A stretch of DNA of 64,000 nucleotides from an uncultured Bacteroidia bacterium. Its GTDB lineage: Bacteria > Bacteroidota > Bacteroidia > NS11-12g > UBA9320. The stretch lies in assembly GCA_943787465.1 (NCBI GenBank), contig CALSMN010000007.1, positions 58,004-122,003 on the forward strand, given 5' to 3'. Below are positions 10,261 to 37,018 of this stretch, piece by piece (the stretch's first letter is position 1; each line of letters begins with the position of its first letter). The notes beneath the pieces are model-generated. The model was not told the origin of the DNA. It was given only the letters and a program-made list of their open reading frames with translations, and did not search any database. A program made the position numbers and the translations under genes.

Positions 10261-10662
10261 TTAATGTTTTGTTTTAAAAGGTTGAATACTAGCTTTGGCA
10301 ATATATCCTGAACTCTCAAATAAAATATCTAAAGATATATTTCTTCCTTGTACATTAGGATTTATTTTTAATGTTGGATTTTCAATGTTAGATCTAAATG
10401 CCATAGCCTTTCTTATAATACGTCCGTATGATTTAAAAGTTACAACGGGATATATTAATATTTGATTAATCTCTTGCTTTGATGATTTATAATTATCAAT
10501 GTAGGCTATTTCTTTTAGAGATTCAGGCTGAAAAAAAAGTGTACGTTTATTATCTAAAAAACCGGATACGTCCTTTTGGGACAAACTCACAGGCAATTCA
10601 AGCTCTTGAGACCATATGTCAATCTCAGAAGATCTTATTTCGGTTAAAATGGGCTTGTCCAA
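10261..10662 (-). CDS. anti-sigma factor, C-terminal part (probable frameshift fragment; ORF begins at TTG directly after an in-frame stop)
   Basis: The reading frame becomes contiguous with ORF 10644-11105 if one extra T is added to the T7 run at 10665-10671. Confidence 0.45.
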   Translation of the reverse strand: MDKPILTEIRSSEIDIWSQELELPVSLSQKDVSGFLDNKRTLFFQPESLKEIAYIDNYKSSKQEINQILIYPVVTFKSYGRIIRKAMAFRSNIENPTLKINPNVQGRNISLDILFESSGYIAKASIQPFKTKH

Positions 10663-11105
10663 GGTTTTTTTAAAGAACTACCCGATATATAAACCGTGGA
10701 ACTCCCATGATGTTGCTGGTATTTTTTTAAGGGTATACTAGCTTCTTCAGTTGTAGATTTTGGACTATAATTTGAAATACTCGAATTTAATAAAAATGAA
10801 TTATTTCCCAATTTAACTGGTCCCATCAAGCTAATGAGTAAGATGAATAAAATAGAAGCTGCTATACTTTGACCATAATCCATAAAGTATCGTTTTTTGG
10901 ACAACGGTTTTAACAAATCCGATGTATGGCTATACACCACTTCGTCATCTGCAGATATTTTAGTCTGTTTTAGAAATTTCCATTCTTTAAAAAGAAATTC
11001 GCTCTCTTCTATCTGTTCCATCACTAAAAGTTCATCTTGATGACTCAAATTACCTTCTAAAAGATCAAATAAAATCCATTCATAATTTTTTGCATTTAAC
11101 TTCAT
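10644..11105 (-). CDS. anti-sigma factor, N-terminal part with one TM helix (frameshifted partner of 10261-10662)
   Basis: Overlaps the ECF sigma stop by 4 bp. It contains a single TM segment AASILFILLISLMG. It ends in the homopolymer run. Confidence 0.5.
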   Translation of the reverse strand: MKLNAKNYEWILFDLLEGNLSHQDELLVMEQIEESEFLFKEWKFLKQTKISADDEVVYSHTSDLLKPLSKKRYFMDYGQSIAASILFILLISLMGPVKLGNNSFLLNSSISNYSPKSTTEEASIPLKKYQQHHGSSTVYISGSSLKKPWTSPF

Positions 11106-11587
11106 AATACCAATACATCTAATTTTTGAAGATAGGCTTTAATTGTTTTGCGAGCCCTAAATATATAAATCTTAACCTGACTATCACTCAAATCCATAAT
11201 TTTACCTATACTTCGATAATCATACCCTTCATAATCCCTTAATAGTAGTACATTTTTATATTTTTCAGGCAAACGATTCATTGCCTTTTTTACCACCTCC
11301 ATTGTATTATTATACAACTCTTCTTCCGCAGCAATCTCACCAATATCATCAAAAGAAACACGGTTTTTCTGCTTTCGTATTGAATCTATCATCTCGTGAT
11401 AGGCCATTTTGAATAGATAGGGTTTTGCTGTTTTAAACTCAATTTTATCCTTGCGTATCCATAACTTTTCATAGGTATTTTGGACAATGTTTTCTGCTTC
11501 AAATTCATCTTTTATATTTTTTAGGATGAACCGATATATCCCATCAGTATGCGTTTGAACACAGATATTATACTCTTGAGTAGTCAT
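11102..11587 (-). CDS. RNA polymerase ECF-type sigma-70 factor
   Basis: The region 4 motif LLLRDYEGYDYRSIGKIMDLSDSQVKIYIFRARKTIKAYL is present. A region 2 segment lies at the N-terminus. Confidence 0.85.
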   Translation of the reverse strand: MTTQEYNICVQTHTDGIYRFILKNIKDEFEAENIVQNTYEKLWIRKDKIEFKTAKPYLFKMAYHEMIDSIRKQKNRVSFDDIGEIAAEEELYNNTMEVVKKAMNRLPEKYKNVLLLRDYEGYDYRSIGKIMDLSDSQVKIYIFRARKTIKAYLQKLDVLVL

Positions 11588-14958: not shown

Positions 14959-15061
14959 TTATCTAATTTTCGTAAGCAATAAATTATGATAAAAATCATA
15001 ATTGGATATGATTTTTAACCACTGCTATTTTTATGACCAATACATTACATTTGACCTTAGT

Positions 15062-16306
15062 ATGATGGATAAAATAAAATGTCCCCATTGTGGAAGTAAT
15101 TTTGATGTAGAAGAAGCCTTAAGCGGCAAATTACAGGCTCACTTTAAGGCAGAATTTGAACAAAAATTAGCCCAACAAAATCAACGGTTTGAAGCAGAAC
15201 AACTAAAACTGCAACAGGAAAAAGCCGCCTTCGAAGAAAAAAAGAAAAATGAAAATGAGCTGTTTCAAGATCGTTTGAACCAGCAATTACTCAAAGAAAA
15301 AGAAAGCATCCATAAACAAACCCAAGCCTCTTTTGAGCAACAACTGAAAGATCTCACCGAAGAAAATGAGAAGAAAAAAGCGGAAAACGCAGCGCTAAAG
15401 GCAATTGAAATAAGTCTACTCAAAAAAGAACGCGATTTGAAAGAACAAGCCGAAAACTTGCAGCTTGATCTCGAAAAAAAAATGCTAGACAAACAACACG
15501 AAATTGAGGAAAAGGCTCGAGCTAAAGAACGAGAAACCTTTGAATTGGAAAAAATAAAATGGCAAAAACAAATAGATGATAATAAAAGACTGGCAGAGGA
15601 AATGCGTCGAAAAGCAGAACAAGGCAGCATGCAGCTTCAAGGGGAGGTGCAAGAACTAGCCCTAGAAAACCTGCTTTTGGCTTCCTACCCCTTCGATATT
15701 ATTAAAGAAGTGCCTAAAGGAGTTCGTGGAGCCGACTGCATTCAAGTTGTTCGAAACAACACACAGCAAATCTGTGGTTCTATCGTATATGAGAGTAAAC
15801 GTACCAAGAATTTTGCTGGTGATTGGATTGAAAAACTCAAGCAAGATCAGATGAACTGCCAAGCAGATATTGCTGTAATTGTTACGGAAACTTATCCCTC
15901 AGATATGGATCGGTTTGGTGCTAAAGATGGTGTTTGGATTTGTGGATTTCATGAAGTAAAAAGCCTTTCTTTTATTCTTCGCGAGATGGTAATTAAGACC
16001 CATGCCGTAAAATCTGCTGAAGAAAACAAGGGCGATAAGATGGAGCTACTATATACCTACCTGACCAGCAATGGTTTTGTTCAAAATATTCAGCGCATTG
16101 TCGAAAATTATGATGGAATGATCAACCAACTCAATGCCGAAAAAAAAGCCATGCACAAAATTTGGGCTACACGTGAAAAACAAATATGGGTGGTGCAAGA
16201 AAATCTAGCATCTCTTTTTGGAAGCATAAAAGGTATTGCTGGCAATGAGCTCGAAGCATCCCAGATTATGAAACTAACGGATCATCATCCAGATGAAGAA
16301 ATATAA
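15062..16306 (+). CDS. DUF2130-like protein: N-terminal CPHCG zinc-ribbon-like motif, long coiled coil, C-terminal PD-(D/E)xK nuclease-like domain
   Basis: The N-terminus is MDKIKCPHCGSNFDVEEA. About 200 aa of K/E/Q-rich coiled coil follow. The C-terminal domain has GADCIQVV followed by a downstream VYESKRT, which fits a D...ExK nuclease motif. The start could also be the TTG at 15002. Confidence 0.55.
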   Translation: MMDKIKCPHCGSNFDVEEALSGKLQAHFKAEFEQKLAQQNQRFEAEQLKLQQEKAAFEEKKKNENELFQDRLNQQLLKEKESIHKQTQASFEQQLKDLTEENEKKKAENAALKAIEISLLKKERDLKEQAENLQLDLEKKMLDKQHEIEEKARAKERETFELEKIKWQKQIDDNKRLAEEMRRKAEQGSMQLQGEVQELALENLLLASYPFDIIKEVPKGVRGADCIQVVRNNTQQICGSIVYESKRTKNFAGDWIEKLKQDQMNCQADIAVIVTETYPSDMDRFGAKDGVWICGFHEVKSLSFILREMVIKTHAVKSAEENKGDKMELLYTYLTSNGFVQNIQRIVENYDGMINQLNAEKKAMHKIWATREKQIWVVQENLASLFGSIKGIAGNELEASQIMKLTDHHPDEEI

Positions 16307-17893: not shown

Positions 17894-18910
17894 TTACATG
17901 TTTCTTCGATATTGACCACCTACCTCAAAGAGAGCATCCGTAATCTGTCCTAAAGAACAGACTTTACACGCTTCCATGAGAGCATCAAATAGATTTTCAT
18001 TTTGAAGTGCAACCGATTGAATATTTTTCTGCTGTTTCTTGGATGCTTCAGCATAGCAAGTATGAAGGTTTTCTAATGTTTTAATTTGGATTTGTTTTTC
18101 TTCTTCCGTTGCTCGAATAACCTCCTTGGGTAAAATAGTAGGCGACCCATTACTACTTAAAAAAGTATTTACGCCAATTATAGGAAAATCACCATTGTGT
18201 TTTAGCGTTTCGTAATACAGACTTTCTTCCTGAATCTTACTTCTTTGATACATTGTTTCCATAGCACCTAAAACACCCCCTCGCTCTGTTATACGGTCAA
18301 ATTCCGCCAAAACAGCTTCTTCCACAAGCACTGTAAGCTCTTCAGTGATAAAAGAACCTTGCATAGGATTTTCATTCTTAGCTAACCCCAGTTCTTTATT
18401 AATAATGAGCTGGATAGCGACAGCTCTTCTGACACTTTCCTCTGTAGGAGTGGTGATAGCCTCATCATATGCATTGGTATGCAATGAATTACAATTATCA
18501 TAAATGGCATACAAAGCTTGAAGTGTAGTTCGAATATCATTAAAATCAATTTCTTGAGCATGCAAACTTCTTCCACTGGTTTGAATATGATATTTAAGCA
18601 TTTGACTTCGCTCATCTGCACCGTATTTTAATTTCATTGCTTTAGCCCAAATCTTTCGTGCAACCCTTCCAATAACCGCATATTCTGGATCTATACCGTT
18701 GGAGAAGAAAAATGACAAATTAGGACCAAAATCATTGATATTCATTCCCCTACTCAAATAATACTCTACATAGGTAAATCCATTGGCTAAGGTAAATGCT
18801 AATTGTGTAATTGGATTTGCACCAGCTTCTGCGATATGATATCCTGAAATGGACACAGAATAAAAATTTCGAACCCCATGATCCGTAAAATATTGCTGTA
18901 CATCTCCCAT
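17894..18910 (-). CDS. icmF: fused isobutyryl-/methylmalonyl-CoA mutase (IcmF-like), C-terminal substrate-binding barrel fragment (frameshifted)
   Basis: [27 protein letters not shown] matches the mutase TIM-barrel. It continues the upstream ORF 18967-21279 after a -1 frame change. Confidence 0.7.
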
Positions 18911-18966
18911 TAACCTGAGTGCAAATTCAGTAGAGAAGATACACGTATTTTGAGCTTGATCTTCTT

Positions 18967-21279
18967 TTAATATATCTGCCTGAACCGTACCACGAACTTG
19001 TTTAATGTGTCTGCTTTAATTTTAGAATAAATATCCGAAGGGAGCACCATATCACCTGTTACTCCAAGTAGCATAAGTCCTAGGCCGTTATTACCCACTG
19101 GCAATTCTCCTTCATACTGCGGTTGTTTTATACCACGTGAATTAAAAAAGGCATCTATTTTAGCTTTTATCTCTTTTTCAATGCCTTGCTCATGAATATA
19201 TAGTTCACATTGTTGATCAATGGCAGCATTCATAAAATAACCTAAAAGCATAGGCGCAGGACCATTGATAGTCATACTTACCGACGTCATTGGATTGGCT
19301 AGGTTAAATCCAGAATACAGCTTTTTTGCATCATCCAAACAACAAATACTCACTCCAGCATTACCAATTTTACCATAGATATCAGGACGATGATCTGGAT
19401 CATTTCCGTATAAGGTTACCGAATCAAAGGCTGTGCTTAACCGTTTAGCGGGCATACTGCTACTCAAATAATGAAAACGTTTATTCGTTCTTTCAGGACC
19501 TCCTTCACCCGCAAACATACGAGTGGGGTCTTCTCCTTGACGTTTGAATGGGTATATTCCTGCTGTAAACGGAAATTTACCGGGCACATTTTCTTGTAAA
19601 TTCCATTGTAAAATGTCACCCCAAGCCTCATATTTAGGTAGCGATACTTTGCTTATTTTTTGATGTGATAGTGAGGTCGTTTTAGTTTCAACCTTAATTT
19701 CTCTTCCACGGACCAAATACGTATATATATCATTGGCGTATGCCGCTTTTAGCTGATCCCACTCGTCTAAAACCACCTGAAGTTTGGGGTCAAAATCAAG
19801 AGCCACTCTGGCATACGTCTCTTTTAAATCTTTTATCAAACGATCAGAATCGTCAACCGCTGTCTCTTGAATAGTCTGAATAGTTTTATGAATTCCGAAT
19901 AATTTTTGAGCAATATTGGCTTGTTGTTTTGCCCATTGATTGTAACTCCGATTATTTTCTGCTATTTCAGATAAATACCGAACTCGTTTAGGAGGTATAA
20001 TATATATTTTCTCACTCAATTCTTGAGTAGTACCATACGAAGTATTTAGATCCGCATTTGTGTTCGTTTGAATCGTTTTTATCAGTGTAGCATACAATGA
20101 ATTCACACCTGGATCATTAAATTGACTTGCTATAGTCCCAAAAACGGGCATTTTATCTGGATCTTGATCAAATAATTGATGATTCCGTTGAAATTGTTTC
20201 TTAACATCTCTGAGTGCATCTAGAGCACCACGTTTATCAAACTTATTGAGTGCTATCACATCCGCAAAATCAAGCATATCAATTTTCTCTAACTGGGTGG
20301 CAGCTCCATATTCTGGAGTCATTACATATAAACTCACATCACTGTGATCTGTAATCTCTGTGTCGCTTTGTCCAATACCCGAAGTTTCTAAAATAATTAA
20401 GTCATACCCGGCCACTTTCAATATATCTTTAGCCGTATCAATATGCGCTGACAAGGCTAAATTTGCTTGTCTTGTTGCTAAAGAACGCATATAAACTCGC
20501 TCACTACGAATACTGTTCATTCGGATTCGGTCACCTAAAAGGGCACCGCCTGTTTTACGTTTTGATGGATCTACTGATATAATTGCTATATTTTTTTTAG
20601 GGAAATCCAGTAAAAAACGTCGAACTAATTCATCTACTAAGCTACTTTTTCCTGCTCCCCCAGTTCCAGTTATTCCTAACACAGGAGTTGATATCGTTTT
20701 AGCCTCACGTTGAATTTGATCTAAAAAGGCTTTGTTTTCTTTAGGAAAATTTTCTGCAGCAGAAATGATCCGTGCAATAGACATCTTGTTGCGTGTCCTG
20801 AACGAATCTATTTCGCCATTTAGATGTTGACCTGTTGCAAAATCTGATTTTTGAATCAAATCATTAATCATTCCTTGAAGTCCCATAGACCTTCCATCAT
20901 CTGGATGATATATTTTAGCTATGCCATATGCTTCTAACTTCTCAATTTCTTCTGGTAAAATTGTGCCCCCACCACCACCAAATAGTTGAATATGACTAGC
21001 TCCTTTTTCAACCAAAAGATCGCGCATATATTTAAAATATTCATTATGACCTCCTTGGTAACTGGTCATTGCAATCGCATTGGCATCTTCTTGAATAGCT
21101 GTATTAACAACTTCTTCAGCACTTCTATCATGGCCTAAATGTATCACTTCACATCCACTCGCCTGAATTATCCTTCGCATAACATTGATTGCGGCATCAT
21201 GGCCGTCAAACAAGGATGCGGCAGTTACAATTCTAACTTTATGTTTAGGAGAATAGGGCGTTTGATCTTGCATGTGCAA
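18967..21279 (-). CDS. icmF: fused B12-dependent acyl-CoA mutase (IcmF-like): B12-binding domain + MeaB-like GTPase + start of mutase barrel (frameshifted, continues in 17894-18910)
   Basis: The N-terminal B12-binding domain carries [12 protein letters not shown]. The MeaB-like P-loop is [17 protein letters not shown]. The ORF ends with [14 protein letters not shown], which aligns to the mutase motif DILKEFMVRNTYIY immediately before a premature stop. Confidence 0.75.
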
Positions 21280-21445: not shown

Positions 21446-22819
21446 ATGATAATAATCAGAGGATTCATTGGAATAATCATTTTGATTGGATTTGCTTTCA
21501 TTTTTAGTAAGCATAAAAAACATATCAACTGGAAATTAGTCTTATCAGGTATTTTGATCCAATTTATACTCGCAATTCTTGTATTTAAACAAATCGAAAT
21601 TCCATTCACGAATATTTCTATTTCAATTATATTCACATTTTTAGCTGGCTTCTTTACTCAATTATTAGCTTTTACTGATTCTGGTGCCCAGTTTATTTTT
21701 GGAAATTGGCCAGATTCTGCTCAAATCTTCAAATTGGGGTCTAATGGACCCATTGAACATACAATTGGTTATGTGTTTGCCTTTAAGGTTTTGCCAACTG
21801 TCGTTTTCTTTTCTGCACTTACCTCACTTCTTTATTATTTAGGAATACTCCAAAAAATTGTTTACGGATTTGCTTGGGTACTTAGTAAAACGATGCGGCT
21901 ATCTGGTGCAGAAAGTTTGGCAGCAGCCGCCAATATTTTTGTGGGTCAAACTGAAGCACCCTTGATTGTAAAACCATACATTGCTCATATGACTAAATCT
22001 GAGATTATGTGTTTAATGACAGGAGGTATGGCAACTATAGCTGGCGGTGTTTTTGCTGCATTTATTGGATTTCTTGGAGGTGATGACATCGCTTCTCAAC
22101 AAGAATTCGCCAAACATTTGTTAACTGCATCTATTCTTTCTGCACCAGCTGCAATTGTCTGTGCTAAAATTCTATTTCCAGAGACTGAAGAAATCAATCA
22201 AAATTTAGAAATCAACAAAGAAAAAATAGGGAATGGACCACTAGAAGCAATTTCCAATGGCACTACCGACGGAATAAAGCTTGCCGTCAATGTAGCTGGT
22301 ATGATTTTGGTTTTTCTAGCATTTATTTCCTTGATCAATTATTTGTTAATCAATATTATCGGAGAATTCAACGGAATAGGATCTTGGCAATTTACATCCC
22401 TCAATGAAATTATTGAGACAAGGACTATATTTGATTCATTCAATCTTCAGATGATATTGGGATATCTTTTTGCTCCCTTTGCATGGATTATTGGTATCCA
22501 TTCAAATGACATATTAATAGCTGGTCAACTACTGGGTGAAAAAACCGTCATCAACGAATTTATTGCCTATTTATCGCTGAAAGACATCGTTGCAGAAAAT
22601 ACAACAAATGCCCTCCTTCAAAAAAGAACCATCATTATTCTTACCTACGCATTGTGTGGATTTTCCAATTTTGCATCCATAGGCATCCAAATTGGAGGTA
22701 TTGGTTCTATTGCTCCTAATCAACGAAGCACATTAGCTAAACTAGGACTTCGATCTCTTTTAGGAGGAACATTGGCTTGTCTCATGACTGCAGCAGTAGC
22801 AGGTATGTTCACATTATGA
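21446..22819 (+). CDS. nupC: NupC/CNT-family concentrative nucleoside transporter
   Basis: 457 aa polytopic membrane protein with CNT-family conserved blocks GQTEAPLIVKPY and GFSNFASIGIQIGG. Confidence 0.8.
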   Translation: MIIIRGFIGIIILIGFAFIFSKHKKHINWKLVLSGILIQFILAILVFKQIEIPFTNISISIIFTFLAGFFTQLLAFTDSGAQFIFGNWPDSAQIFKLGSNGPIEHTIGYVFAFKVLPTVVFFSALTSLLYYLGILQKIVYGFAWVLSKTMRLSGAESLAAAANIFVGQTEAPLIVKPYIAHMTKSEIMCLMTGGMATIAGGVFAAFIGFLGGDDIASQQEFAKHLLTASILSAPAAIVCAKILFPETEEINQNLEINKEKIGNGPLEAISNGTTDGIKLAVNVAGMILVFLAFISLINYLLINIIGEFNGIGSWQFTSLNEIIETRTIFDSFNLQMILGYLFAPFAWIIGIHSNDILIAGQLLGEKTVINEFIAYLSLKDIVAENTTNALLQKRTIIILTYALCGFSNFASIGIQIGGIGSIAPNQRSTLAKLGLRSLLGGTLACLMTAAVAGMFTL

Positions 22820-23526
22820 TGAATCGCGGTTTTTTATATGGTGATGGTTTTTTTGAAACTATACGTATATATAATGGACAGGTGCCTTTGTTACATTATC
22901 ATATTCAACGTATCCATGAGGGTTTGAAAATTTATCATCTTGAGCACTCTTTCCCAATTGATGAACTGTTCATAAGATCACTTATAACCAACGAAAACCA
23001 AATTATTAGAGTAAATTTTTTTAGAAGCGGTGGTGGTAAATATTTACCAGAAAATAATGAGTTGTCATTTGATTTCACGTGTGAGCAATGTGATTTACCC
23101 TTCTTTCTTCCTACCCAGTTAGATCTCGAATCTGAACTCCAGAAAGCTCCAATTCAATTGGGTCAATTCAAACTTTATGATCAACCCAAACCTGTTGTGA
23201 ATTGGTTGACGGTTAAAAGCTTATCTAGTATATACTATGTTTTGGCCGCTGAATTCATGAAAAAATCAGAAGCCGACTACTTATTCATAAAAAATCAGGA
23301 CGGAGATATCTGTGAGGAATTGATTAGCAATATTTTAATTTTTGACGGAGAAAATTATATAACTCCATCACTGTCATCTGGTGGAATATACGGAGTCACA
23401 TTAAGACATATTATTTCAAATTATCATTTTCAAATTATTGAAAGAAAAATAAACTATGATGATATCTGCCATGCTTCAAAGATATTTTCATTGAGAGGCA
23501 CAGTAGGAATAACCCGCATAAAATAA
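22816..23526 (+). CDS. class IV aminotransferase family protein (aminodeoxychorismate lyase-like)
   Basis: The N-terminus MMNRGFLYGDGFFETIRIYNGQVPLL is typical of PabC/IlvE-fold proteins. The start overlaps the nupC stop (ATGA). Confidence 0.65.
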   Translation: MMNRGFLYGDGFFETIRIYNGQVPLLHYHIQRIHEGLKIYHLEHSFPIDELFIRSLITNENQIIRVNFFRSGGGKYLPENNELSFDFTCEQCDLPFFLPTQLDLESELQKAPIQLGQFKLYDQPKPVVNWLTVKSLSSIYYVLAAEFMKKSEADYLFIKNQDGDICEELISNILIFDGENYITPSLSSGGIYGVTLRHIISNYHFQIIERKINYDDICHASKIFSLRGTVGITRIK

Positions 23527-25472: not shown

Positions 25473-26897
25473 TTATGGTGCTCCTACTCTGTGCATAGCA
25501 CATCTAAAACCAAGGGTTGACAATGATTGCTCTTCATCTAAATATCTTCTTGTGCCTGGTGAAGCCCAATAAATTCTATCATTCCATGACCCTCCTTTGT
25601 ATACTCTAGCTTGGTTATCAATAAGTGTAGACACACCATATTCATAACCTTGTTCGCCATCCATATACAGTTCCTCATCCAAATATCCCATGTTATCTGC
25701 TCTTTTATAGTTTCTTCTTCCAACGTTTTCCTCTTCGGTAACAGGAACATATACAATTCTTCCTAAACTGTCTTTTAAGTCAACAATACCATCTTGATCC
25801 AAACTAACTTTATCAAAAACATTTCCTCTAAAAGAGTTAAAATCACTCACATCTTCATAGGATAAAGGTCTGTAAACATCCATCACCCATTCAGCAACGT
25901 TACCACTCATATTATATAAACCATGATCATTAGGCCAATATGAAGCAACTGATGTTGTGATTAATGCCCCATCATTTAATCGATTTGCAATACCTCCTTG
26001 ATCACCTTTGCCTCGTTTGAAGTTACCATACATGTATCCTCTATCTCTCTCATCTCCACCAGAGTATCTTACGGTTAAACCTTCCCATGAGTATATTTTC
26101 TTTTGGTTTATATTTTCATAAGTAGAGGAACCAATATTGGCTTGTGCAGCATATTCCCATTCAGCTTCAGTTGGAAGTCTATAATCTGGAAGCATAATAC
26201 CATCTTCCATTCTAACTTGACGAGTTCCACCTTTTTTCACTCGATAATCTTTCATTTGATGTTTACCGAAAGTTAATCCATCGCTTTGACCTACATAGTA
26301 TGCATCAGTATTAAAGTTAGCTTCATTCATTTGCTCAGGTTCTGGTTCTAAAACACCTTCTCTGATGAGAATCATTTCATTAACTCTATCTGTTCTCCAT
26401 GCAGCATAAGCTGTAGCTTGTTGCCAACTAACTCCCACTACAGGGTAATCTTGATACGCTGGATGACGATAATATAAATCGACATAAGGTTCGTTGTAGG
26501 CCAGTCGATTTCTCCATACATTGGTATCAGGCAACGCATTGATACCTACTTCAGGATAGTCAACATACACACGTTTCAACCAATATACATATTCTCTGTA
26601 ATGATTATTAGTGACTTCTGTTTCATCCATGTAAAATGATGGAACGGTAACCTTTCGTTCAACATTATTGTGTTCATAGGTTACATCTTGTTCTGACGAA
26701 CCCATGGTAAAAGTACCACCATGGACAAGCACTAAACCAGGTCCTGTTTCTTGACCCGCATATTCGTGTTTTTCAAAGCCACCCCATTTGGAATCGTTGT
26801 AATTCCAACCCGTACTGGCTGATTTTTGTTTTTTACAAGCCACAGTTGACATCAAAGAGGCAGCAAGTAGTGTGATTGTGAGTTTATTAAATTTCAT
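25473..26897 (-). CDS. gldJ: gliding-motility lipoprotein of the GldJ/GldK family (FGE-sulfatase fold)
   Basis: Lipoprotein signal peptide LMSTVAC. SUMF1/FGE-like motifs GGSWNDRIYW and LGFRCAM are present. It is adjacent to porU-porV, as gldJ is in Flavobacterium. Its 474-aa size is closer to GldK, so the J/K assignment is uncertain. Confidence 0.6.
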   Translation of the reverse strand: MKFNKLTITLLAASLMSTVACKKQKSASTGWNYNDSKWGGFEKHEYAGQETGPGLVLVHGGTFTMGSSEQDVTYEHNNVERKVTVPSFYMDETEVTNNHYREYVYWLKRVYVDYPEVGINALPDTNVWRNRLAYNEPYVDLYYRHPAYQDYPVVGVSWQQATAYAAWRTDRVNEMILIREGVLEPEPEQMNEANFNTDAYYVGQSDGLTFGKHQMKDYRVKKGGTRQVRMEDGIMLPDYRLPTEAEWEYAAQANIGSSTYENINQKKIYSWEGLTVRYSGGDERDRGYMYGNFKRGKGDQGGIANRLNDGALITTSVASYWPNDHGLYNMSGNVAEWVMDVYRPLSYEDVSDFNSFRGNVFDKVSLDQDGIVDLKDSLGRIVYVPVTEEENVGRRNYKRADNMGYLDEELYMDGEQGYEYGVSTLIDNQARVYKGGSWNDRIYWASPGTRRYLDEEQSLSTLGFRCAMHRVGAP

Positions 26898-26970
26898 ATT
26901 GTAAGAAACTTTTTTTAATAACTATATTCTTTTAATAATATTATGCAATTATACAATTTTATGTTTCCAA

Positions 26971-27963
26971 TTAAAAATCTGGACAAGATAGCTTTCTGTA
27001 TTTTCTATTGGGTTTTTTGGCACACCATTCTATTCCAGTGGAAATTTCATGAGAACTTGGAGCTGCTGAACGAGCATCAGAAACTGTCAAGTCAAAACTA
27101 TATCCAAATTTAAATCGATCTTTTCTAAACCCTACGAGCCCCATGAGTGCATCTGAATTACCGTATTCACCAAAGGTTTGTCTAAACCAAAGTCCAGTAA
27201 CTAATGGTCCTTTATTGTAATAGAAACCGATATTCATTTGGGTAAATTTATTTTGCAACATAAATAGTACATTGGGGGAGATGGTTGATTCGGGAATCTT
27301 TCTTCCATCCAAAGGAATGACTAAACCACTATGAGCTGTATATCTTCGAGGGACAATGGCATCGGGATTACCAAAGAACGATTGATTAGGTTCAATTAAA
27401 TTATGAACAGCTACACCACCATAAAAGCGTTCGGTGTATCCCAAAATACCAGTGGAAAAATTTGCAAAACCCACCCCATCAGATACATATGGTTCAGCAG
27501 TAGGGTTTACAAATCCCTTACTTTCATCGATTTGATCTTCAAATCGAAGTCGTTGCCAATCGATACTACGTTGTCCGTATTGTCCTTCAATACCAAATCG
27601 CATTGTGAATCTTCTATTTACGTCTAATTGAAATGAGTATCCAGCAGAAACTGTTTGAGATCTTAATAAACCTTCGCCTGCACGATCATCCAGCAAAAGT
27701 AGGGATACCCCACCGCCTATATTATCAAAATGTTGATCATAACTGGCACTTGATGTAATGAATGTACCTGGTAATGATGGCCATTGATTTCTGTAGTTCA
27801 GAACTACACGCCCACCGCCATTGCAAGAACCTGTTCCGGCCATTGCTGGATTTGTATACACGGGTGCTGCATAAAACTGAGTAAACTCAGGATCTTGAGC
27901 ATACGTAACAACACTAGATACAAGTATTAATGATAGAATAATTATGGCTTTAAAATTTTTCAT
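26971..27963 (-). CDS. type IX secretion system membrane protein, PorP/SprF family
   Basis: Signal peptide followed by AQDPEFTQFYAAPVYTNPAMAG, the characteristic PorP/SprF N-terminal motif. The fold is beta-barrel-like. Confidence 0.75.
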   Translation of the reverse strand: MKNFKAIIILSLILVSSVVTYAQDPEFTQFYAAPVYTNPAMAGTGSCNGGGRVVLNYRNQWPSLPGTFITSSASYDQHFDNIGGGVSLLLLDDRAGEGLLRSQTVSAGYSFQLDVNRRFTMRFGIEGQYGQRSIDWQRLRFEDQIDESKGFVNPTAEPYVSDGVGFANFSTGILGYTERFYGGVAVHNLIEPNQSFFGNPDAIVPRRYTAHSGLVIPLDGRKIPESTISPNVLFMLQNKFTQMNIGFYYNKGPLVTGLWFRQTFGEYGNSDALMGLVGFRKDRFKFGYSFDLTVSDARSAAPSSHEISTGIEWCAKKPNRKYRKLSCPDF

Positions 27964-28120
27964 TCTGTGAATTATTGTAATTTACAAAGATATAACATTT
28001 GTAAAGATACGATTATATTTTGTCATTATTATACCGCTTTTGTAAAATTTTAAATTTTTAACAATAAATATTCTTGTTCATATGTTAGTCTTTTAGCTTA
28101 TCAAGATTAAAATTGCATTC

Positions 28121-31100
28121 ATGATATTAAACTGGTCGCTGAAGTCCTTTTTTCTAAATATAATTTTTCTATTTTACTTTCAAGAAGTAATTGGTCAAGT
28201 AGCGTCAGTTGAATGGGTCATAGACGAGCAAGTCAGTTCTAATCCAGATTCTAGAGTACATGAAGTTTTGCGTCCTTTCTCTTGTGTTGGTTGTTTTGAA
28301 AAACTGACCAAGGACAAAACTTTTATGATCCCATACATCACCAGGAAGTTTTTAGCCAACGATTTTGATGTTACGGATTTAAAATTGAATAATATCACTT
28401 TTGAACGTATAAATTCAGCCCGATTAAACGCCTATTTAACTGAAAATTTTGAACTGAATTCTATTGCCACCTATGAAAAAGGCAATCGTTATATAACGCT
28501 GATTATTACGCCACTCCGTGCAAACAATAATGATGTAGATTATCTAACATCATTTGATATTTCATATACAAAAACACCGTATACCAAGACTTCGAATTCA
28601 ATTAAATACAAAAAAGACCAAACGTATACCTCTGTATTGAAAAATGGTGATTTTTATAAGATTTCTATCGCTACGGATGGAATATACAAATTTGATTGGA
28701 ATTTTATAGCATCTTTAGAAGTTAATCCTAACAATATTTCACTATCAACATTTAAGGTTTATGGCAATGGTGGGGAAATGTTGCCCGAGCTTATTATTTC
28801 AGAACGTTCCGAAGATTTAGTTGAAGTACCCATACAGGTATATGATTTTAACAACAATAATCTTTTTGATAAAGAAGACTATATTTTATGGTTTGCAAAA
28901 GACCCAACATCTATTCGCTATAAAGAATCCAATCAATCTTATGATGCGCAAGGTCATGATTTTGATATCGCATCCCATTACTTCCTAACATGGGGAGGAA
29001 ATGCTGGAAAAAGAATAACTACAATTGCTGATGGTCGAGGTCTATCTTACAATCAGACGACTAATCAATATGAGGATGTAATTTATCATGAACAGAATGA
29101 AGAAAATCACCAAAAATCTGGTCGTATCTGGTGGGGTGATAAAATGCAAAATAATACTATAAAGTCCTTCGGTTACTCCATTCCAGGTATTTCGGTAGGT
29201 GATAAAATCAGTATTCAAACCACTACCACAGCTCGATCTATTCAAGGATATCCGTCCTCTATGCAATTATTTTTAAATGATGAGCTATTAAAAAATATAC
29301 CCTACAGTTCTGTAAGTGGCAGTTATGATGATCGCTATGCTTCAGATCCAATAAAAACCATAGTTGACAAAACCGTAAATAGTGACCAAATCAATCTTAC
29401 ATTCAATTATAATAAATCATGGAATGAAGCTGCAGCTTGGATTGATTATTTTGTTATAACCGTCCCTCGAACCATTCAATTTTATGGGGAACAAAAAATA
29501 ATACGAACACAAAGAAGCATGTTGGACGGAAATACTCGTTTTGAAATATCCAATTATAATCCTTCTACCATGATTTGGAATATTACCGATTTCAAAAACC
29601 CAGCAAATCAGGAAATTGATATTCAAAATAATTCAGGATTTTTTACTGCAGAAAATATAACTATAAATAATCCTCCATTATATATATTATTTGATTTAAA
29701 TTCTACCTTAAGTCCCCGTTTTATTCAAAAAATACCTAATCAAAACTTACATGGGATTAAGGATATTGACTACCTAATTGTAACCCATACAGATTTAGTC
29801 AATCAAGCCGAACGATTGGCCGATTATCATCGAAGTAACAACCTTAGCGTATTTGTTGCTACTACCGATCAAATTTTCAATGAATTTTCATCGGGATCCC
29901 AAGACGTAACTGCAATTCGTGACTTTGCTAAGCTCTTGTATGACAGAGGCAACCTTCCAGGTGCAGAACGAACATTTAAGCACCTTCTGTTATTTGGCGA
30001 TGCAAGCTATGATTTTAAAAACGTTGAAGCAAACAATACCAATGTGGTACCCATCTATCAAAGTTATGAAAGTAACTATCCCCCCATCACCTATTGCTCT
30101 GATGATTATTATGCTATTCTTGATGATGATGAAGGTTATTGGGGCACATCTTCTAAAGATGAGGGATTAGATATTGATGTAGGTAGACTTCCTGCCTCAA
30201 ACATTGCCGAAGCCCAATTGATTGTCGATAAAATTCTTCATTACAATTCAGAAGCAAGCATAGGAAATTGGATGCAAACCATTACTTTTCTTGGAGATGA
30301 TGAGGATCAAAATAGACACGTGCAACCATCTGAAAATATGACTAAAATCATTAGTCAACAAAGCCCTGAATACAACATCAAAAAAATATGGCTCGATGCC
30401 TATGAACAAGTGTCATTTGGAAGTGGCAATAAATATCCGAAAGTCAATGAAGAAATCAATAAAGTTATTAGTTCTCAAGGTACACTGATTTTTAATTATG
30501 TAGGTCATGGTGGTGAAAATGGCATGGCACATGAACGAGTAGTCACAAGACCAGAAATATCCAATTGGACCAACTATGATAAATTATCTTTTTATATCAC
30601 GGCTAGTTGTGAACTTGCCAAAATTGATAACTTAGAAATAGAATCTCCTGGAGAATTAATGCTCTTAAATCCCAATGGTGGTGCTGTCGGTATGCTTGCA
30701 ACTACCCGCGTGGTATACATTGGAGCTAACACTGATTTAAATGCCAACTTACTCAACAACAATCTCTTAAAAAGTACAAATGGAAAGCTACCAACGCTTG
30801 GCGAAGCCTATAGAAATACTAGAAATTCTGATCCATCTGAGGAAATTAATAAACGATGTTTTATTTTGTTAGCAGATCCAGCAATGCGTTTATTGAGTCC
30901 ATCCTACCATGTTGTTACCACTAAAATTAATGAGACTGAGGTGGGATTATTTAATGATACCCTCGGAGCATTAGAAGTTGTAACTATAGAAGGTGAAATT
31001 AGAGATTTGGATCAAAAAATTATGCCCAATTTTAATGGTGAGCTATTCCCAACATTTTATGACAAACCATCAAAGTATTCTACTCTTGGTCAAGATGCAC

Positions 31101-31990
31101 AGAGTATCCCTATCGAGTTTGAAGAACAAAACAGAATCATCTATAAAGGGAAAGTATCAGTAAATAACGGTCAGTTTAAATTTCAATTTGTGATACCCAA
31201 GGATATAGCATACAATGTTGACAAAGGAAAGTTATCTTATTACGCAAAAGATGGATTTGACCATGCAGGAGGTACCGAACTCAATTACAGTATTGGTGGT
31301 ACATCCGATAATGTGGTAGAGGATAACGTATTTGACCAACTTGAACTATACATTGATGATGAAAGTTGGGTGTTTGGCGGATTGACATCTACTCATCCAA
31401 TATTAATTGCTGACTTATTAGACAGTAATGGAATTAATACCATTGGAAGTGGTATTGGAAGAGAGATGGAGGCCATATTGGATAAAGGAACTAAGAATGA
31501 AAAAGTGATTATCCTAAATGATTACTATCAACCTGCACTCAATAGTTATCAGAAGGGACGTATTGAGTACCCATTTGAGACACTAGCTGAAGGACTCCAT
31601 ACATTAAATATCAAAGCCTGGGATGTTTACAATAATTCGAAAGAGGCATATACAGAATTTGTGGTAAGTAAAAATCCAGAAGTTTCTATTGAAAATTTAC
31701 TGAACTACCCTAACCCCTTTAATGCGTTTACAACATTTCATTTTGATCATAATAAATCTGGACAAACACTTACATCGATGCTTACCATCACAAGTGTAAC
31801 TGGTAAAGTTGTAAAAACAATTGTTCAAACAATTCCAAATGCTCCAACCCATTGTTCATCCATAACTTGGGATGGATTTGATGATTTTGGAGACCCTATA
31901 GGTCGAGGAGTATACTTATACACACTAAAAATTAGAACAGAAGATGGAACAGAGACGAGTCAAAATCAAAAATTATACATCATTAACTAA
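28121..31990 (+). CDS. porU: type IX secretion system sortase PorU (C25 gingipain-like peptidase)
   Basis: 1289 aa. It contains a C25-type peptidase region and a C-terminal T9SS CTD-like domain (NYPNPFNAFTTFHF...LYIIN). It is immediately followed by porV. Confidence 0.8.
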   Translation: MILNWSLKSFFLNIIFLFYFQEVIGQVASVEWVIDEQVSSNPDSRVHEVLRPFSCVGCFEKLTKDKTFMIPYITRKFLANDFDVTDLKLNNITFERINSARLNAYLTENFELNSIATYEKGNRYITLIITPLRANNNDVDYLTSFDISYTKTPYTKTSNSIKYKKDQTYTSVLKNGDFYKISIATDGIYKFDWNFIASLEVNPNNISLSTFKVYGNGGEMLPELIISERSEDLVEVPIQVYDFNNNNLFDKEDYILWFAKDPTSIRYKESNQSYDAQGHDFDIASHYFLTWGGNAGKRITTIADGRGLSYNQTTNQYEDVIYHEQNEENHQKSGRIWWGDKMQNNTIKSFGYSIPGISVGDKISIQTTTTARSIQGYPSSMQLFLNDELLKNIPYSSVSGSYDDRYASDPIKTIVDKTVNSDQINLTFNYNKSWNEAAAWIDYFVITVPRTIQFYGEQKIIRTQRSMLDGNTRFEISNYNPSTMIWNITDFKNPANQEIDIQNNSGFFTAENITINNPPLYILFDLNSTLSPRFIQKIPNQNLHGIKDIDYLIVTHTDLVNQAERLADYHRSNNLSVFVATTDQIFNEFSSGSQDVTAIRDFAKLLYDRGNLPGAERTFKHLLLFGDASYDFKNVEANNTNVVPIYQSYESNYPPITYCSDDYYAILDDDEGYWGTSSKDEGLDIDVGRLPASNIAEAQLIVDKILHYNSEASIGNWMQTITFLGDDEDQNRHVQPSENMTKIISQQSPEYNIKKIWLDAYEQVSFGSGNKYPKVNEEINKVISSQGTLIFNYVGHGGENGMAHERVVTRPEISNWTNYDKLSFYITASCELAKIDNLEIESPGELMLLNPNGGAVGMLATTRVVYIGANTDLNANLLNNNLLKSTNGKLPTLGEAYRNTRNSDPSEEINKRCFILLADPAMRLLSPSYHVVTTKINETEVGLFNDTLGALEVVTIEGEIRDLDQKIMPNFNGELFPTFYDKPSKYSTLGQDAQSIPIEFEEQNRIIYKGKVSVNNGQFKFQFVIPKDIAYNVDKGKLSYYAKDGFDHAGGTELNYSIGGTSDNVVEDNVFDQLELYIDDESWVFGGLTSTHPILIADLLDSNGINTIGSGIGREMEAILDKGTKNEKVIILNDYYQPALNSYQKGRIEYPFETLAEGLHTLNIKAWDVYNNSKEAYTEFVVSKNPEVSIENLLNYPNPFNAFTTFHFDHNKSGQTLTSMLTITSVTGKVVKTIVQTIPNAPTHCSSITWDGFDDFGDPIGRGVYLYTLKIRTEDGTETSQNQKLYIIN

Positions 31991-32000
31991 TAAAAAATTA

Positions 32001-33215
32001 ATGATACATTTGCCTTTAAACACTAAAACATTGAAAAATATTAAAACATTAGTCATTGGGTTAAGCCTTTTTATATCAGCCCAAACTTTTGCTCAAGGGG
32101 GACTCCAATCAAAAGAAAGTCTACTAGGACAGCGAAATGTAATTACTACTGCCGCACCTTTTCTGCTAATTTCTCCTGACTCAAGAGCTGCAGCAATGGG
32201 AGATTTAGGAGTTGCAACCTCCGCAGATGCCAACTCTATCCACTGGAATGCCTCCAAATTAGCTTTTGTTGAGGGAGATGGTGGTATTGCAATTTCAGCA
32301 GCACCGTGGTTGAAACAACTTGTTCCAGATATCTGGTTTTATTATCTATCTGGATATAAAAAAATTGATGACAAAAGTACTGTAGCAGCATCATTGAGAT
32401 ATTTTTCACTGGGTGACATTCAGTTTACTGACAATCAAGGAACATCAACAGGAGACTATGAACCAAAAGAGTTTGCATTTGATGGAGCATATGCTCGTAA
32501 ATTATCTGATAACCTAGCATTAGGAGTAGCCCTAAGATTTATCTTTTCTGATCTTGCACGTGGTCAAATAGGATCCAGTGGTACAGAAATAAAAGCAGGA
32601 ATGGCTGGTGCTGGAGATATATCTATGACTTATCTGAATAATACCAATCTAGGCGGTAAAGATTTTGATTATACTATTGGTGGTAACATCAGCAACATTG
32701 GAAATAAAATCACATACACAACAGAGGCAAATCGAGATTTTATTCCTGTGAATCTAAGGGTCGGAACTTTTTGGAGTACTGAATTAGATGAGTATAATGA
32801 CATTGGTTTTGGAGTAGATTTCAATAAACTTCTAGTACCTACTCCCCAATATGAATATGATTCTCTTGGAGAAATATCTGGAAGGGTAATTGCAGATGAT
32901 CCATTGATTAATGGAATGATCTCATCTTTTGCTGATGCTCCTGGAGGATTTAAAGAAGAATTGAACGAAATAACCATTTCTGCGGGTCTTGAATATTGGT
33001 ATGCAAAACAATTTGCTCTTCGTGCTGGATACTTTTATGAAGCAGATACCAAAGGATCTAGAAAATATTTGACCTTTGGTGCTGGACTAAAATATAATGT
33101 TTTTCAAATTGATGCAGCATATCTGCAGCCATTTGCAAGAAGACACCCACTTCAAAATACGATACGATTTAGCCTACTTTTTGATTTAGACGCTTTCAAA
33201 AATCAAGAAAATTAG
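32001..33215 (+). CDS. porV: type IX secretion system outer-membrane shuttle protein PorV (LptO)
   Basis: Signal peptide then a beta-barrel. It is conserved downstream of porU. The ATG at 32001 lies 8 nt after the porU stop. The upstream part of the 31944 ORF overlaps porU. Confidence 0.8.
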   Translation: MIHLPLNTKTLKNIKTLVIGLSLFISAQTFAQGGLQSKESLLGQRNVITTAAPFLLISPDSRAAAMGDLGVATSADANSIHWNASKLAFVEGDGGIAISAAPWLKQLVPDIWFYYLSGYKKIDDKSTVAASLRYFSLGDIQFTDNQGTSTGDYEPKEFAFDGAYARKLSDNLALGVALRFIFSDLARGQIGSSGTEIKAGMAGAGDISMTYLNNTNLGGKDFDYTIGGNISNIGNKITYTTEANRDFIPVNLRVGTFWSTELDEYNDIGFGVDFNKLLVPTPQYEYDSLGEISGRVIADDPLINGMISSFADAPGGFKEELNEITISAGLEYWYAKQFALRAGYFYEADTKGSRKYLTFGAGLKYNVFQIDAAYLQPFARRHPLQNTIRFSLLFDLDAFKNQEN

Positions 33216-33268: not shown

Positions 33269-33910
33269 TTATGTTTGTAAAAATGGATTAGCAATTCGTT
33301 CTTGTCCAATAGTTGTTAGTGGACCATGACCAGAATACACCACAGTAGAATCATCCAATACGAGTAGATGAGTATCTATAGAACGTATAAGGATATCAAA
33401 ATCACCTCCAGGAAGATCTGTTCTTCCAATACTCCCTTGGAATAAAACATCTCCACCGATAACATATCCTTCTTTTTCATTATGAAAACAAACACTCCCA
33501 GGTGAGTGACCAGGAGTATGGAATATTTTAAAATCAGCTCCGCCAAATTGAAATGATTGACCATGGGTTAGCGTTGAATTCGCTTTAACCAGAGGTTTCA
33601 TAGGCAAACCATATTGTTGAGCAACAGATACGGCAGAGTTATAAATCATTAAATCGTCTGCATGAAGTTCTGGGACTACATTATAATTTTGATATACCCA
33701 ATTTACGCCAAATACATGATCTAAATGAGCATGAGTAAGTATGAGTCGAATTGGGTTTAATCCATGTGAGTTTAAATATTCAAAAAATTTTATATTTTCC
33801 TGAGGATAATACATTCCAGGATCAATGATGATTGCATTGGAATAATCATCTGATAGGATATACGTATTTTCTGCAAATGGACCGAATGTAAGTTGATGAA
33901 TGTGTGTCAT
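33269..33910 (-). CDS. MBL-fold metallo-hydrolase (glyoxalase II-like)
   Basis: The metal-binding motif THAHLDHVFG and downstream conserved His/Asp residues are present. The start overlaps the rodA stop (ATGA), so it is translationally coupled to the rod operon. Confidence 0.75.
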   Translation of the reverse strand: MTHIHQLTFGPFAENTYILSDDYSNAIIIDPGMYYPQENIKFFEYLNSHGLNPIRLILTHAHLDHVFGVNWVYQNYNVVPELHADDLMIYNSAVSVAQQYGLPMKPLVKANSTLTHGQSFQFGGADFKIFHTPGHSPGSVCFHNEKEGYVIGGDVLFQGSIGRTDLPGGDFDILIRSIDTHLLVLDDSTVVYSGHGPLTTIGQERIANPFLQT

Positions 33911-35175
33911 GATAAAACCGATTCTAAATCTTGATCTCTAGTCGCATCCAGTTTAAGAGCCGTAAAAATAAATATACCAAAACCTAGTACAGATGAACCA
34001 CCATAAGAAATTAGAGGCAATGGAATACCAATTACAGGCATAAGACCAATTGCCATGCCTATGTTTACAACAACATGAAATAAAATAATGGATGCTAAAG
34101 AACTAATAAAAATTCGTTTAAATTTCTTTTTAGCACGAGAAGACAAATAGAATAATCGGAGAACAAATGACAAGTATAGGATAATTGTAATGCTACTCAT
34201 TACCCACCCTCCTTCTTCACCGATAGTGCAAAAAATAAAATCTGTTTCTTGTTCTGGTATGAAATTCCCCTTCGTGTGTGAACCGTTCAAAAAACCTTTA
34301 CCATATAGTCTTCCAGAACCTATAGCTATTTTAGATTGATTAACATTATATCCCGCACCCTGATTATCTTCAATCAAATTTAAAGTGACTTGTATCCTTT
34401 TTTGCTGATGTTCTTGAAGTACATTTTCAAAAATAAACTGAACACACAAACTGAATATTATAGCTAAAAATAAAAATGATACACTTGGCCAAAAAAATCG
34501 TTTTTCAGAATAGGTAAATCCATAAAAGATTAAGAACAAAATCAGTAGAGCAATACTTAGATATAAGGATCCATAAATTAAAGTTACTATAAAAATAATA
34601 ATTGAGGCTATCCCTAAAACTAATACCGTTGGGGTAAGTCCTTCTAAATAAAAAACAATTATAAAACTCAAAAATACCAGAGCTGAACCTGTATCCCCTT
34701 GTAAAATTATCAACCCCATTGGAATTAATAATACTAAAATAACTCTAATCAAATCTGATCTTTTATTGAATGAAAAATCAATAGCACTAATCAAAGAAGA
34801 TACAACTAAAGCCGTTCCATATTTTCCAAATTCTGAGGGTTGAATACTAAATGAGCCGAGTTTTATCCAAGATCTAGCACCATTTATATCAACTCCAATT
34901 ATCAATACAAGAAGTAGCAATAGCATACAAATACCGAATATGTAAAAACTAAATAATTCAAAAAAATTAGCATTGAGTAAGAAAATGATAATACCCAGAA
35001 ATAATGAAATTCCAAACCAAACTAATTGTTTGCCACTTCTTCCGTCAAAAAGACTAAAAATAGTATCATTCATTGTAGCTGAATAGACACTTGCTATTCC
35101 TAAACTAGTAATCACTATGAAAAGAAATAAAGCGATGATATCTAGCTGAGATCTATTTTCCATATAAAGACTCAT
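33907..35175 (-). CDS. rodA: rod shape-determining protein RodA (SEDS family)
   Basis: FtsW/RodA/SpoVE family with 10 TM segments. The start may be the ATG at 35163. Confidence 0.85.
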   Translation of the reverse strand: MSLYMENRSQLDIIALFLFIVITSLGIASVYSATMNDTIFSLFDGRSGKQLVWFGISLFLGIIIFLLNANFFELFSFYIFGICMLLLLLVLIIGVDINGARSWIKLGSFSIQPSEFGKYGTALVVSSLISAIDFSFNKRSDLIRVILVLLIPMGLIILQGDTGSALVFLSFIIVFYLEGLTPTVLVLGIASIIIFIVTLIYGSLYLSIALLILFLIFYGFTYSEKRFFWPSVSFLFLAIIFSLCVQFIFENVLQEHQQKRIQVTLNLIEDNQGAGYNVNQSKIAIGSGRLYGKGFLNGSHTKGNFIPEQETDFIFCTIGEEGGWVMSSITIILYLSFVLRLFYLSSRAKKKFKRIFISSLASIILFHVVVNIGMAIGLMPVIGIPLPLISYGGSSVLGFGIFIFTALKLDATRDQDLESVLS

Positions 35176-37018
35176 CCATCATTATTCTATATTTTTCTGG
35201 AATCAAATTAGCATTAATCATCTTCTCTTCTAACTTGGGCTTAGTTGTATGATTCTCAGAATCTATCTTCAGATATTTTTCAATCATTAAATGTGCTATT
35301 GGCGCAGCCCAGGAGGCACCATACCCCGATTCTTCAACAATAACAGCTATGGCTATTTTAGGGTCATTAACAGGAGCAAAAGACATATATACTGAGTGAT
35401 TCTTGCCGTGAGGATTTTGGACCGTTCCTGTTTTTCCCGCTATTTCAATATGATCAAAAGCTAGATGAGATGCTGTACCGGAAATGGTCACCTCTTTCAT
35501 CCCTTCGATTACGGGCAAAAAATGTTCAGGTGAGACATGAGTCACATGTTTAGTTAAATATTTTTTGGGTATTTGATCTAAACCTTCAATTTGCTTTACC
35601 ACATGTGGCGTATAAAAGTAGCCCTTATTGGCAATAGTAGCTGCCACATTGGCAATTTGTATGGGGGTGAGTCCCAGTTCACCTTGACCAAAAGACAGGG
35701 AAATAATACTGGCATAATTCCAACTATTTTTACCATGCATTTTGTTGTAATAATCTGCATCTTTTACCCATCCCTTAAATTCACCAGAAATATCTATTCC
35801 CAGTTCATTTCCTAAGCCAAAGCTATTTAAATAAGATGTCCAGCTCACATATGCTTCTTCGGTAGATGAATACTTCTGAGATTGCATCATTTTTTTAAAT
35901 ATATTGCAGTAATACGTATTGCAACTGCTAGCTATACTCTCTTTTAGACTCGTATTTGATGGATGATAGTGACATTTAATAATTTGAGTACCAAGCTTAT
36001 ATTGACCAGAACAATTGAAATGAGTATGAGACTCAATAGCATTATCTTCAAGACCTACTAATGCCATTAGCGGTTTGAAAGTACTGCCAGGAGGATATGG
36101 AGCACTTACTGCTCGATTAAAAATAGGTTTTGTAGGATCATCAATAGCTCTTTTGTAATACTTACCTCTATTCTGAATATTGAAATTTGCTGGATTATAA
36201 AATGGGCTTGAAATAAGGGACAAAATTTCTCCCGTTTGGGGTTCAATCGCTACAATACTTCCCATTTTATTATCCAATAATTTCTCGCCATATTGTTGTA
36301 AGTCAACATCAATAGTTAAATGTAAATTTTTTCCGTCAACCGGTTCAACATTTAAGGCCCCATTTTTATAAACACCTTTATTGACACCTGAACGATCTAC
36401 ATAAAAAAAATATTCACCTTTAGCACCTCTGAGTTCTTTCTCATAAATTTTCTCGACTCCTTTTTTACCAATAAAATCACCTTGGCTATAAAAACTATCA
36501 CGTTGAGTCATCAAATCAGACTCACCTACCTCACCTAGATATCCTAATAAATGAGCCGAGCTATTGTATTTATAATTTCTATCTTGTCTAATTTCAAAGA
36601 AAAATCCTTGAAATTCGTACATTCTTTCTTGAATATGGGCATAGGTAGTATTTGAAATATTTTTTTTAAAAAGCGATTTGCCTTGGTAGGATTGTTTTTT
36701 GGATTTTGCTAGTAGTTTATCAAAGGTGTTTTTATCTATTTCTAACAATTCACAAAAAGCTAAAGTATCTATATTTTGCAATGAAATAGGTACAGACACC
36801 ATTAAATCATAAACTGGATCATTGTAGACTAAAAGCTTTTGATTTCTATCAAAGATAAGACCACGTTGTGGGTATATGACTTGTTTTCGAAGCGATATAC
36901 GTTCTGCAATTAGCGCGTATTTGTCATCCAAAACTTGAATTTGAAGTAATCTGAATAGATAGGTTAATCCAATAATCACAACCGTCAAATAGATATAAGG
37001 TAGTCTACTATTTTTCAC
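35153..37018 (-). CDS. mrdA: penicillin-binding protein 2 (peptidoglycan D,D-transpeptidase MrdA)
   Basis: N-terminal TM anchor. The motifs STFKP, SSCN and KTGT are present. Confidence 0.9.
   Translation of the reverse strand: MKNSRLPYIYLTVVIIGLTYLFRLLQIQVLDDKYALIAERISLRKQVIYPQRGLIFDRNQKLLVYNDPVYDLMVSVPISLQNIDTLAFCELLEIDKNTFDKLLAKSKKQSYQGKSLFKKNISNTTYAHIQERMYEFQGFFFEIRQDRNYKYNSSAHLLGYLGEVGESDLMTQRDSFYSQGDFIGKKGVEKIYEKELRGAKGEYFFYVDRSGVNKGVYKNGALNVEPVDGKNLHLTIDVDLQQYGEKLLDNKMGSIVAIEPQTGEILSLISSPFYNPANFNIQNRGKYYKRAIDDPTKPIFNRAVSAPYPPGSTFKPLMALVGLEDNAIESHTHFNCSGQYKLGTQIIKCHYHPSNTSLKESIASSCNTYYCNIFKKMMQSQKYSSTEEAYVSWTSYLNSFGLGNELGIDISGEFKGWVKDADYYNKMHGKNSWNYASIISLSFGQGELGLTPIQIANVAATIANKGYFYTPHVVKQIEGLDQIPKKYLTKHVTHVSPEHFLPVIEGMKEVTISGTASHLAFDHIEIAGKTGTVQNPHGKNHSVYMSFAPVNDPKIAIAVIVEESGYGASWAAPIAHLMIEKYLKIDSENHTTKPKLEEKMINANLIPEKYRIMMDESLYGK

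Follow-up and report, generated by a model that had tools for sequence, protein, structure and literature searches.

IcmF, the fused isobutyryl-CoA mutase/GTPase, catalyzes the AdoCbl-dependent interconversion of isobutyryl-CoA and n-butyryl-CoA, as well as that of pivalyl-CoA and isovaleryl-CoA, and its G domain is involved in the loading and repair of the cofactor (PMC10481361). In the enzyme of C. metallidurans (PDB 4xc6), a B12-binding domain, a MeaB-like GTPase, a linker and the mutase barrel follow one another, an order that is also found in the protein described here. MCM (MutB) has in common with this protein the AdoCbl radical mutase fold and the chaperone family; however, in MCM the barrel precedes the B12 domain and the GTPase (MeaB/MMAA) is a separate protein, whereas the gene analyzed in this work is a fusion.

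A second term of comparison is provided by long-read metagenome assemblies, in which indels give rise to frameshifts (PMC8302730; bioRxiv 10.1101/2021.08.23.457338). The icmF gene of the 64-kb stretch of DNA analyzed here (hereinafter, the window) is split by a single base, and we suggest that this split is most probably a one-base artefact of the consensus sequence.

Domain Organization and Identity of the Split Gene

The whole icmF gene spans positions 17894..21273 of the minus strand. In all the relatives, icmF starts at the ATG equivalent to the one at 21273 (MQDQTPY...). The distance from this codon to position 17894 is 3380 nt, one less than the 3381 nt (a multiple of three) of the intact relatives, and adding an A to the AAA run (19001-19003) restores an uninterrupted protein of 1126 aa. 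An earlier note on this DNA had described two ORFs, 18967-21279 and 17894-18910, as one gene split by a -1 frameshift; both ORFs exist, on the minus strand, and the three-frame translation revealed that the shift from the upstream to the downstream part is indeed to the -1 (+2) frame, so that a single-base change of frame interrupts the gene. The upstream ORF encodes 770 aa if read from a TTG and 768 aa if read from the ATG at 21273; the downstream ORF (338 aa) is merely the ATG-initiated part of the open stretch 17894..19000.

The domains, all on the minus strand, are distributed over the two ORFs as follows. The N-terminal B12 (cobalamin)-binding domain (20920..21234; Pfam PF02310, aa 16-120) harbors the DGHDAAIN motif with the cobalamin His ligand (21184-21207) in a context identical to that of C. 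metallidurans IcmF. The MeaB-like G-protein chaperone domain (20038..20772; Pfam PF03308, aa 170-414, E=1.7e-40) contains the P-loop GTGGAGKSS (20641-20667) and the motifs ETSGIGQ (20368-20388) and NKFD (20236-20247). The first part of the acyl-CoA mutase substrate-binding barrel (19004..19605, aa 559-692) is encoded in the upstream frame and matches positions 20-151 of the Pfam profile MM_CoA_mutase (PF01642), whereas the remainder of the barrel, which ends with RRNM and the stop codon, is encoded in the -1 frame (17894..19000) and matches positions 191-511 of the 512 of the same profile in the downstream ORF (E=2.7e-80). Since the profile continues across both ORFs, they are successive pieces of one gene.

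The order of the Pfam domains across the two ORFs is that of a single-polypeptide IcmF, and the repaired ORF and its 21 near-identical database relatives are each a single protein of 1126 aa, even though in the literal sequence of the window the polypeptide is interrupted by a 1-nt deletion. The NCBIfam equivalog model of IcmF (NF045497) gave 1754.7 bits against a cut-off of 1500, and the MCM equivalog remained at 347 bits, below its 876-bit cut-off, both scores having been measured on a database protein (P0001) that is one residue off the repaired window protein. The alignment of the joined translation to IcmF, a check proposed in the earlier note, yielded 1379 bits with 4xc6 (phmmer) over two stretches, residues 8-697 and 747-1126; the second alignment, that to the downstream mutase part, accounts for 607.5 bits, and the upstream-frame alignment runs as far as ...SKIKADTL. 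Judging from its sequence, the locus is an IcmF-type fusion in which the B12-binding domain, the MeaB-like GTPase and the mutase barrel occur in that order, as the earlier note had recognized.

The ICM-type Phe (19498-19527, the counterpart of TRMFAGEG) and the ICM-type Gln (in AQNTCIF, 18935-18955, in the downstream frame) are both present and match TRMFAGEG and GQNTCIF of C. metallidurans IcmF. We take the Phe of TRMFAGEG and the Gln of QNTCIF to be substrate-specificity positions, which in MCM are occupied by Tyr and Arg (RQYAGF and VRNTYIY). The His-ligand, P-loop and NKFD motifs are also present and conserved with respect to 4xc6. With all its catalytic and cofactor motifs intact, this appears to be an ordinary icmF gene of the functional type.

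Such a fusion is not a rarity. The earlier note had considered the fused architecture uncommon and notable in a Bacteroidota genome, a view that the searches contradict: a scan of one genome per species found a relative encoded in at least 596 entries (of the 600 matches listed), and the best 80 of these 596 are full-length (about 1126 aa), show 71-77% identity and are nearly all from Bacteroidota, including Flavobacterium, Crocinitomicaceae, Cyclobacteriaceae, Chitinophagaceae, Algoriphagus, Hymenobacter and others. The metagenome scan behaved likewise, and both protein-seeded scans returned relatives at no more than 77% identity among the matches listed. The protein search gave at least 8000 matches. 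The IcmF fusion is, thus, common in Bacteroidota, and NCBI has a dedicated naming model for it (NF045497).

Intact Relatives and Position of the Break

Intact genes are present in close relatives, as the earlier note had proposed to verify. The repaired protein differs at 1-5 residues from 21 intact 1126-aa database proteins, and the protein search revealed many further relatives at 87-89% identity. At the DNA level, intact copies were found in L002 and L003 (ENA assemblies with "contig_N" names), in L004, L005 and L169 (MEGAHIT-style k141 names), in L006 (a Logan contig), in L007 (the NCBI MAG GCA_028356355.1, "Bacteroidia bacterium") and in L171 (JGI). These eight sequences share 99.5-99.7% identity with the window over as much as 9.4 kb, and their genes are arranged in the same order. 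The sole indel that separates the window from L003-L007 is the one at 19001-19003; L002 has one more, its own insertion at 23065.

When the DNA is aligned with that of the intact relatives, the missing base maps to the run 19001-19003, where the gene strand of the window reads AAA (TTT on the plus strand) and the relatives read AAAA (Lys) or AAGA (Arg); in a longer context, the relatives have ACATTAAAACAAG (Lys758) or ACATTAAGACAAG (Arg758), and the window has ACATTAAACAAG. The two frames agree with this position: the upstream frame matches the homologues up to ...SKIKADTL (19003-19026) and no further, and the downstream frame is open already from 19015. The stretch 18967..19000 is, in the upstream frame, an out-of-frame read-through closed by the TAA at 18967-18969, as seen in the three-frame translation. 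The earlier note had located the break further downstream, at 18961-18975, and had aligned RFRQIY with the mutase motif VRNTYIY; both points have to be corrected, as RFRQIY belongs to the read-through that follows the deletion, and the true counterpart of VRNTYIY is AQNTCIF (18935-18955), which corresponds residue for residue to GQNTCIF of C. metallidurans IcmF.

Residue 758 is polymorphic: of the 21 near-identical proteins, 13 have Lys and 8 have Arg, the corresponding DNA being TTAAAACAAG or TTAAGACAAG. The missing base thus falls on an A/G difference (Lys/Arg) that is common among the strains, although the placing of a deletion inside an A-run on the SNP position is partly a convention of the alignment. 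At the same site, another sequence of the group, L001 (ENA ERZ10646630 contig_18410), reads TTAAAGACAAG / ACATTAAAGACAAG, that is AAAGA, with one extra base; L001 carries both alleles (A and G) side by side, a +1 error. An exact-pattern DNA scan for the three alleles (AGCAGACACATTAA N{0,3} ACAAGTTCGTGGTACGG) gave no match in genome_contigs or in metagenome_contigs.

Indels in the Sister Assemblies

The alignment of 11 sequences (7226 shared columns, 82 of which, about 1.1% of positions, are polymorphic) revealed nine indels, and all nine are harbored either by the window or by the "contig_N" ENA assemblies L001, L002, L168 and L170, a type of name that points to long-read assembly. None occurred in L004, L005, L169, L171 and L007, whose names suggest short-read assembly, the distinction between long-read and short-read assemblies being drawn from contig naming alone. 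Five of the nine indels fall on SNP columns, in spite of the small share of positions that such columns represent: the "CT" of L002 at a C/T SNP, the "AG" of L001 at an A/G SNP and its deletion at a C/T SNP, the deletion of L170 at a tri-allelic G/C/T site, and that of the window at an A/G SNP within an A-run. The others are a deletion at a non-variable T in L001 and three changes in the length of A-homopolymers in L168.

The icmF gene is interrupted at different positions in the different contigs, its product being in four pieces in L001, in pieces of 782 and 278 aa in L168 and of 611 and 465 aa in L170, and whole in L002 and L003; this distribution argues against an inherited pseudogene. The whole pattern reads, instead, as the signature of consensus errors arising where co-assembled strains differ. 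In strain-collapsed assemblies of this population, indels fall on the very positions of SNPs, the two alleles being either retained together or lost together, and this pattern is of use in judging other "frameshifts" in data of this kind.

A split is also seen in the gene for a class-IV aminotransferase located beside a transporter, which in L002 (747-1458; ENA ERZ10646650 contig_7210) consists of pieces of 89 and 85 aa; an inserted base has left the two alleles of a C/T SNP next to each other ("CT"; position 23065 of the window). The copy of the window (about 22777-23526) is intact and encodes 249 aa.

State of the Rest of the Window

Over the 7.2-kb alignment, the window has no private substitutions, the deletion being its only private feature. 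Its alleles form a mosaic of those present in the other contigs, and not one of the 21 intact proteins has its combination D369/K374; among the SNPs that flank the deletion, the window has C at 19459, T at 19075 and G at 18875. The mosaic is in keeping with a strain-collapsed consensus, and natural recombination could give the same pattern. More generally, the population that carries this locus is highly mosaic: residues 369, 374, 390, 406, 758 and 1088 occur in almost every combination among the 21 near-identical IcmF proteins, which suggests either frequent recombination or widespread chimeric consensus sequences in metagenome assemblies.

No other split gene was detected among the 20 adjacent same-strand ORFs tested in the 64 kb, which are densely packed; these ORFs look like distinct and complete genes. 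The general error rate of the window is low, since no second split gene was found and a single indel separates it from the relatives in 9.4 kb. Two groups of genes that look intact serve as an internal control for this low frameshift rate: a cell-shape cluster on the minus strand (33907-39354), with a RodA/FtsW-family protein, PBP2 and three downstream genes (probably MreD/C/B), and a ClpX-ClpP pair (50937-52832, minus strand).

The window also contains a type IX secretion/gliding cluster (25473-33215) made up of the genes for an FGE-sulfatase-domain protein (25473-26897), a PorP/SprF-family protein (26971-27963), a PorU-like Peptidase_C25 protein of 1289 aa (28121-31990) and PorV (31944-33215), the presence of which confirms the Bacteroidota origin of the window. 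On the minus strand, at 10261-11587, downstream of a gene for an ECF-type sigma-70 factor (11102-11587) lie two small ORFs (153 and 133 aa) that overlap each other and gave no Pfam match; they could represent anti-sigma/accessory proteins or a split gene. Lastly, the product of the DUF2130 gene (about 15002-16306 in the window, where the ORF has 434 aa from a TTG) is 413 aa long in L007 (7969-9210) and 432 aa in other contigs (L002, 7969-9267), probably because of a start-codon or SNP difference.

Discussion

The data reported above point to a one-base artefact of the consensus as the most probable origin of the split icmF gene. We propose that one base is missing from the consensus at 19001-19003 (AAAA or AAGA reduced to AAA), most probably through an error made in consensus building or polishing when co-existing strains were collapsed into one metagenome assembly; these strains differ by an A/G exactly at the missing base, inside a short A-run. 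The identity of the gene, the exact site, the intact relatives, the polymorphism and the recurrence of the same class of error in the sister assemblies were observed directly; from them we infer that the deletion has no support in the reads behind the window. The product would be one polypeptide beginning with the cobalamin-binding domain, with a MeaB-like GTPase part that, by analogy with known G domains of this kind, should load and edit adenosylcobalamin, and with a C-terminal TIM-barrel mutase predicted to interconvert isobutyryl-CoA and n-butyryl-CoA (and isovaleryl-CoA and pivalyl-CoA).

The earlier note had left the choice between an indel error and an inactivated gene. These were the right alternatives, and the evidence favors the former. 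The latter would imply a real and very recent 1-bp deletion (AAAA to AAA) in one strain or subpopulation, whose IcmF would be truncated in the mutase barrel and inactivated, with other strains intact; we regard such an event as unlikely, but not as negligible. The deletion is present in the sequence as given, and the commonest natural frameshift mutations are precisely one-base deletions in short homopolymers, so that slippage in this A-run would be nothing unusual. Moreover, as no second frameshift was detected in the 64 kb, the window is not generally error-ridden, and a recent real frameshift retains some probability for this reason. Against a real deletion stand the lack of private substitutions in 7.2 kb and that of any further gene decay. 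The site is an A/G SNP at which another assembly (L001) shows the opposite (+1) error, and errors of the same class recur in the "contig_N" assemblies only. In addition, an exact look-up of the 770-aa and 768-aa upstream products of the window found no record in the public collection searched, whereas intact icmF alleles are present on dozens of contigs.

A second possibility is that the gene is expressed by programmed or tolerated -1 ribosomal frameshifting on the heptamer A_UUA_AAC (19000-19006, gene strand), which would yield IcmF at full length, Lys/Arg758 being replaced by Asn. The coronavirus slippery site is U_UUA_AAC, and the heptamer, which lies in the 0 frame, resembles it; besides, a -1 slip would give ...TLNQVRGTVQ..., and the residue before QVRGTVQ is Asn in 65 of the 95 homologues that are more distant. 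Yet the first base of the heptamer breaks the X_XXY_YYZ rule, and no stimulatory structure was found downstream, the region 18900-19010 folding at -16.2 kcal/mol vs. a shuffle mean of -17.5 (z=+0.45), with 129 of 200 shuffles of the gene strand folding at least as well. Furthermore, the site is in frame in all eight undisturbed relatives (L002-L007, L169 and L171), and also in L168 and L170, so that nothing about it is conserved as a signal. We consider this reading highly improbable, and the opinion of the earlier note that programmed frameshifting is unlikely is shared here, there being no canonical heptamer, structure or conservation.

The two processes might also be combined, with a real deletion in a natural strain of marine-type Bacteroidia and a low level of full-length IcmF produced via -1 slippage on A_UUA_AAC. 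To this combination, too, we would assign very little probability; if it were true, residue 758 would be Asn, as in most of the distant homologues, and the gene, far from dead, would be "leaky". An inherited pseudogene was rejected, as no relative has the deletion of the window, private substitutions are absent and all the motifs are intact, and transcriptional slippage was discarded because the A3 run is far too short.

If, as we think, the split is an artefact of the consensus, its biological weight is small: the gene is a standard icmF, of which public databases already contain near-identical intact copies, and the fusion occurs widely in Bacteroidota. Its practical value is that of a quality flag, the consensus of the window being probably one base short at 19001-19003; the locus should, therefore, receive a single annotation, that of an IcmF of 1126 aa, in place of two ORFs or a pseudogene.

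Comparison with Known Systems

In comparison with C. metallidurans IcmF (4xc6), the window protein conserves DGHDA, the P-loop, the ICM-type Phe and QNTCIF, and has diverged in the linker/insert regions, roughly residues 400-520 and 697-747. It also differs in that the consensus of the window is one base short and its ORF is split, whereas its close relatives are intact. MCM chains match the C-terminal barrel of the window protein at E values of about 1e-60 to 1e-72.

As for the break itself, its nearest counterparts are the frameshift indels of long-read metagenome assemblies, which likewise involve a single base at a homopolymer or strain-variable site and break an ORF, and the pattern seen in the "contig_N" sister assemblies of the same species is the same as that of the window's indel. 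Unlike long-read metagenome assemblies, however, the window shows one frameshift alone in 64 kb.
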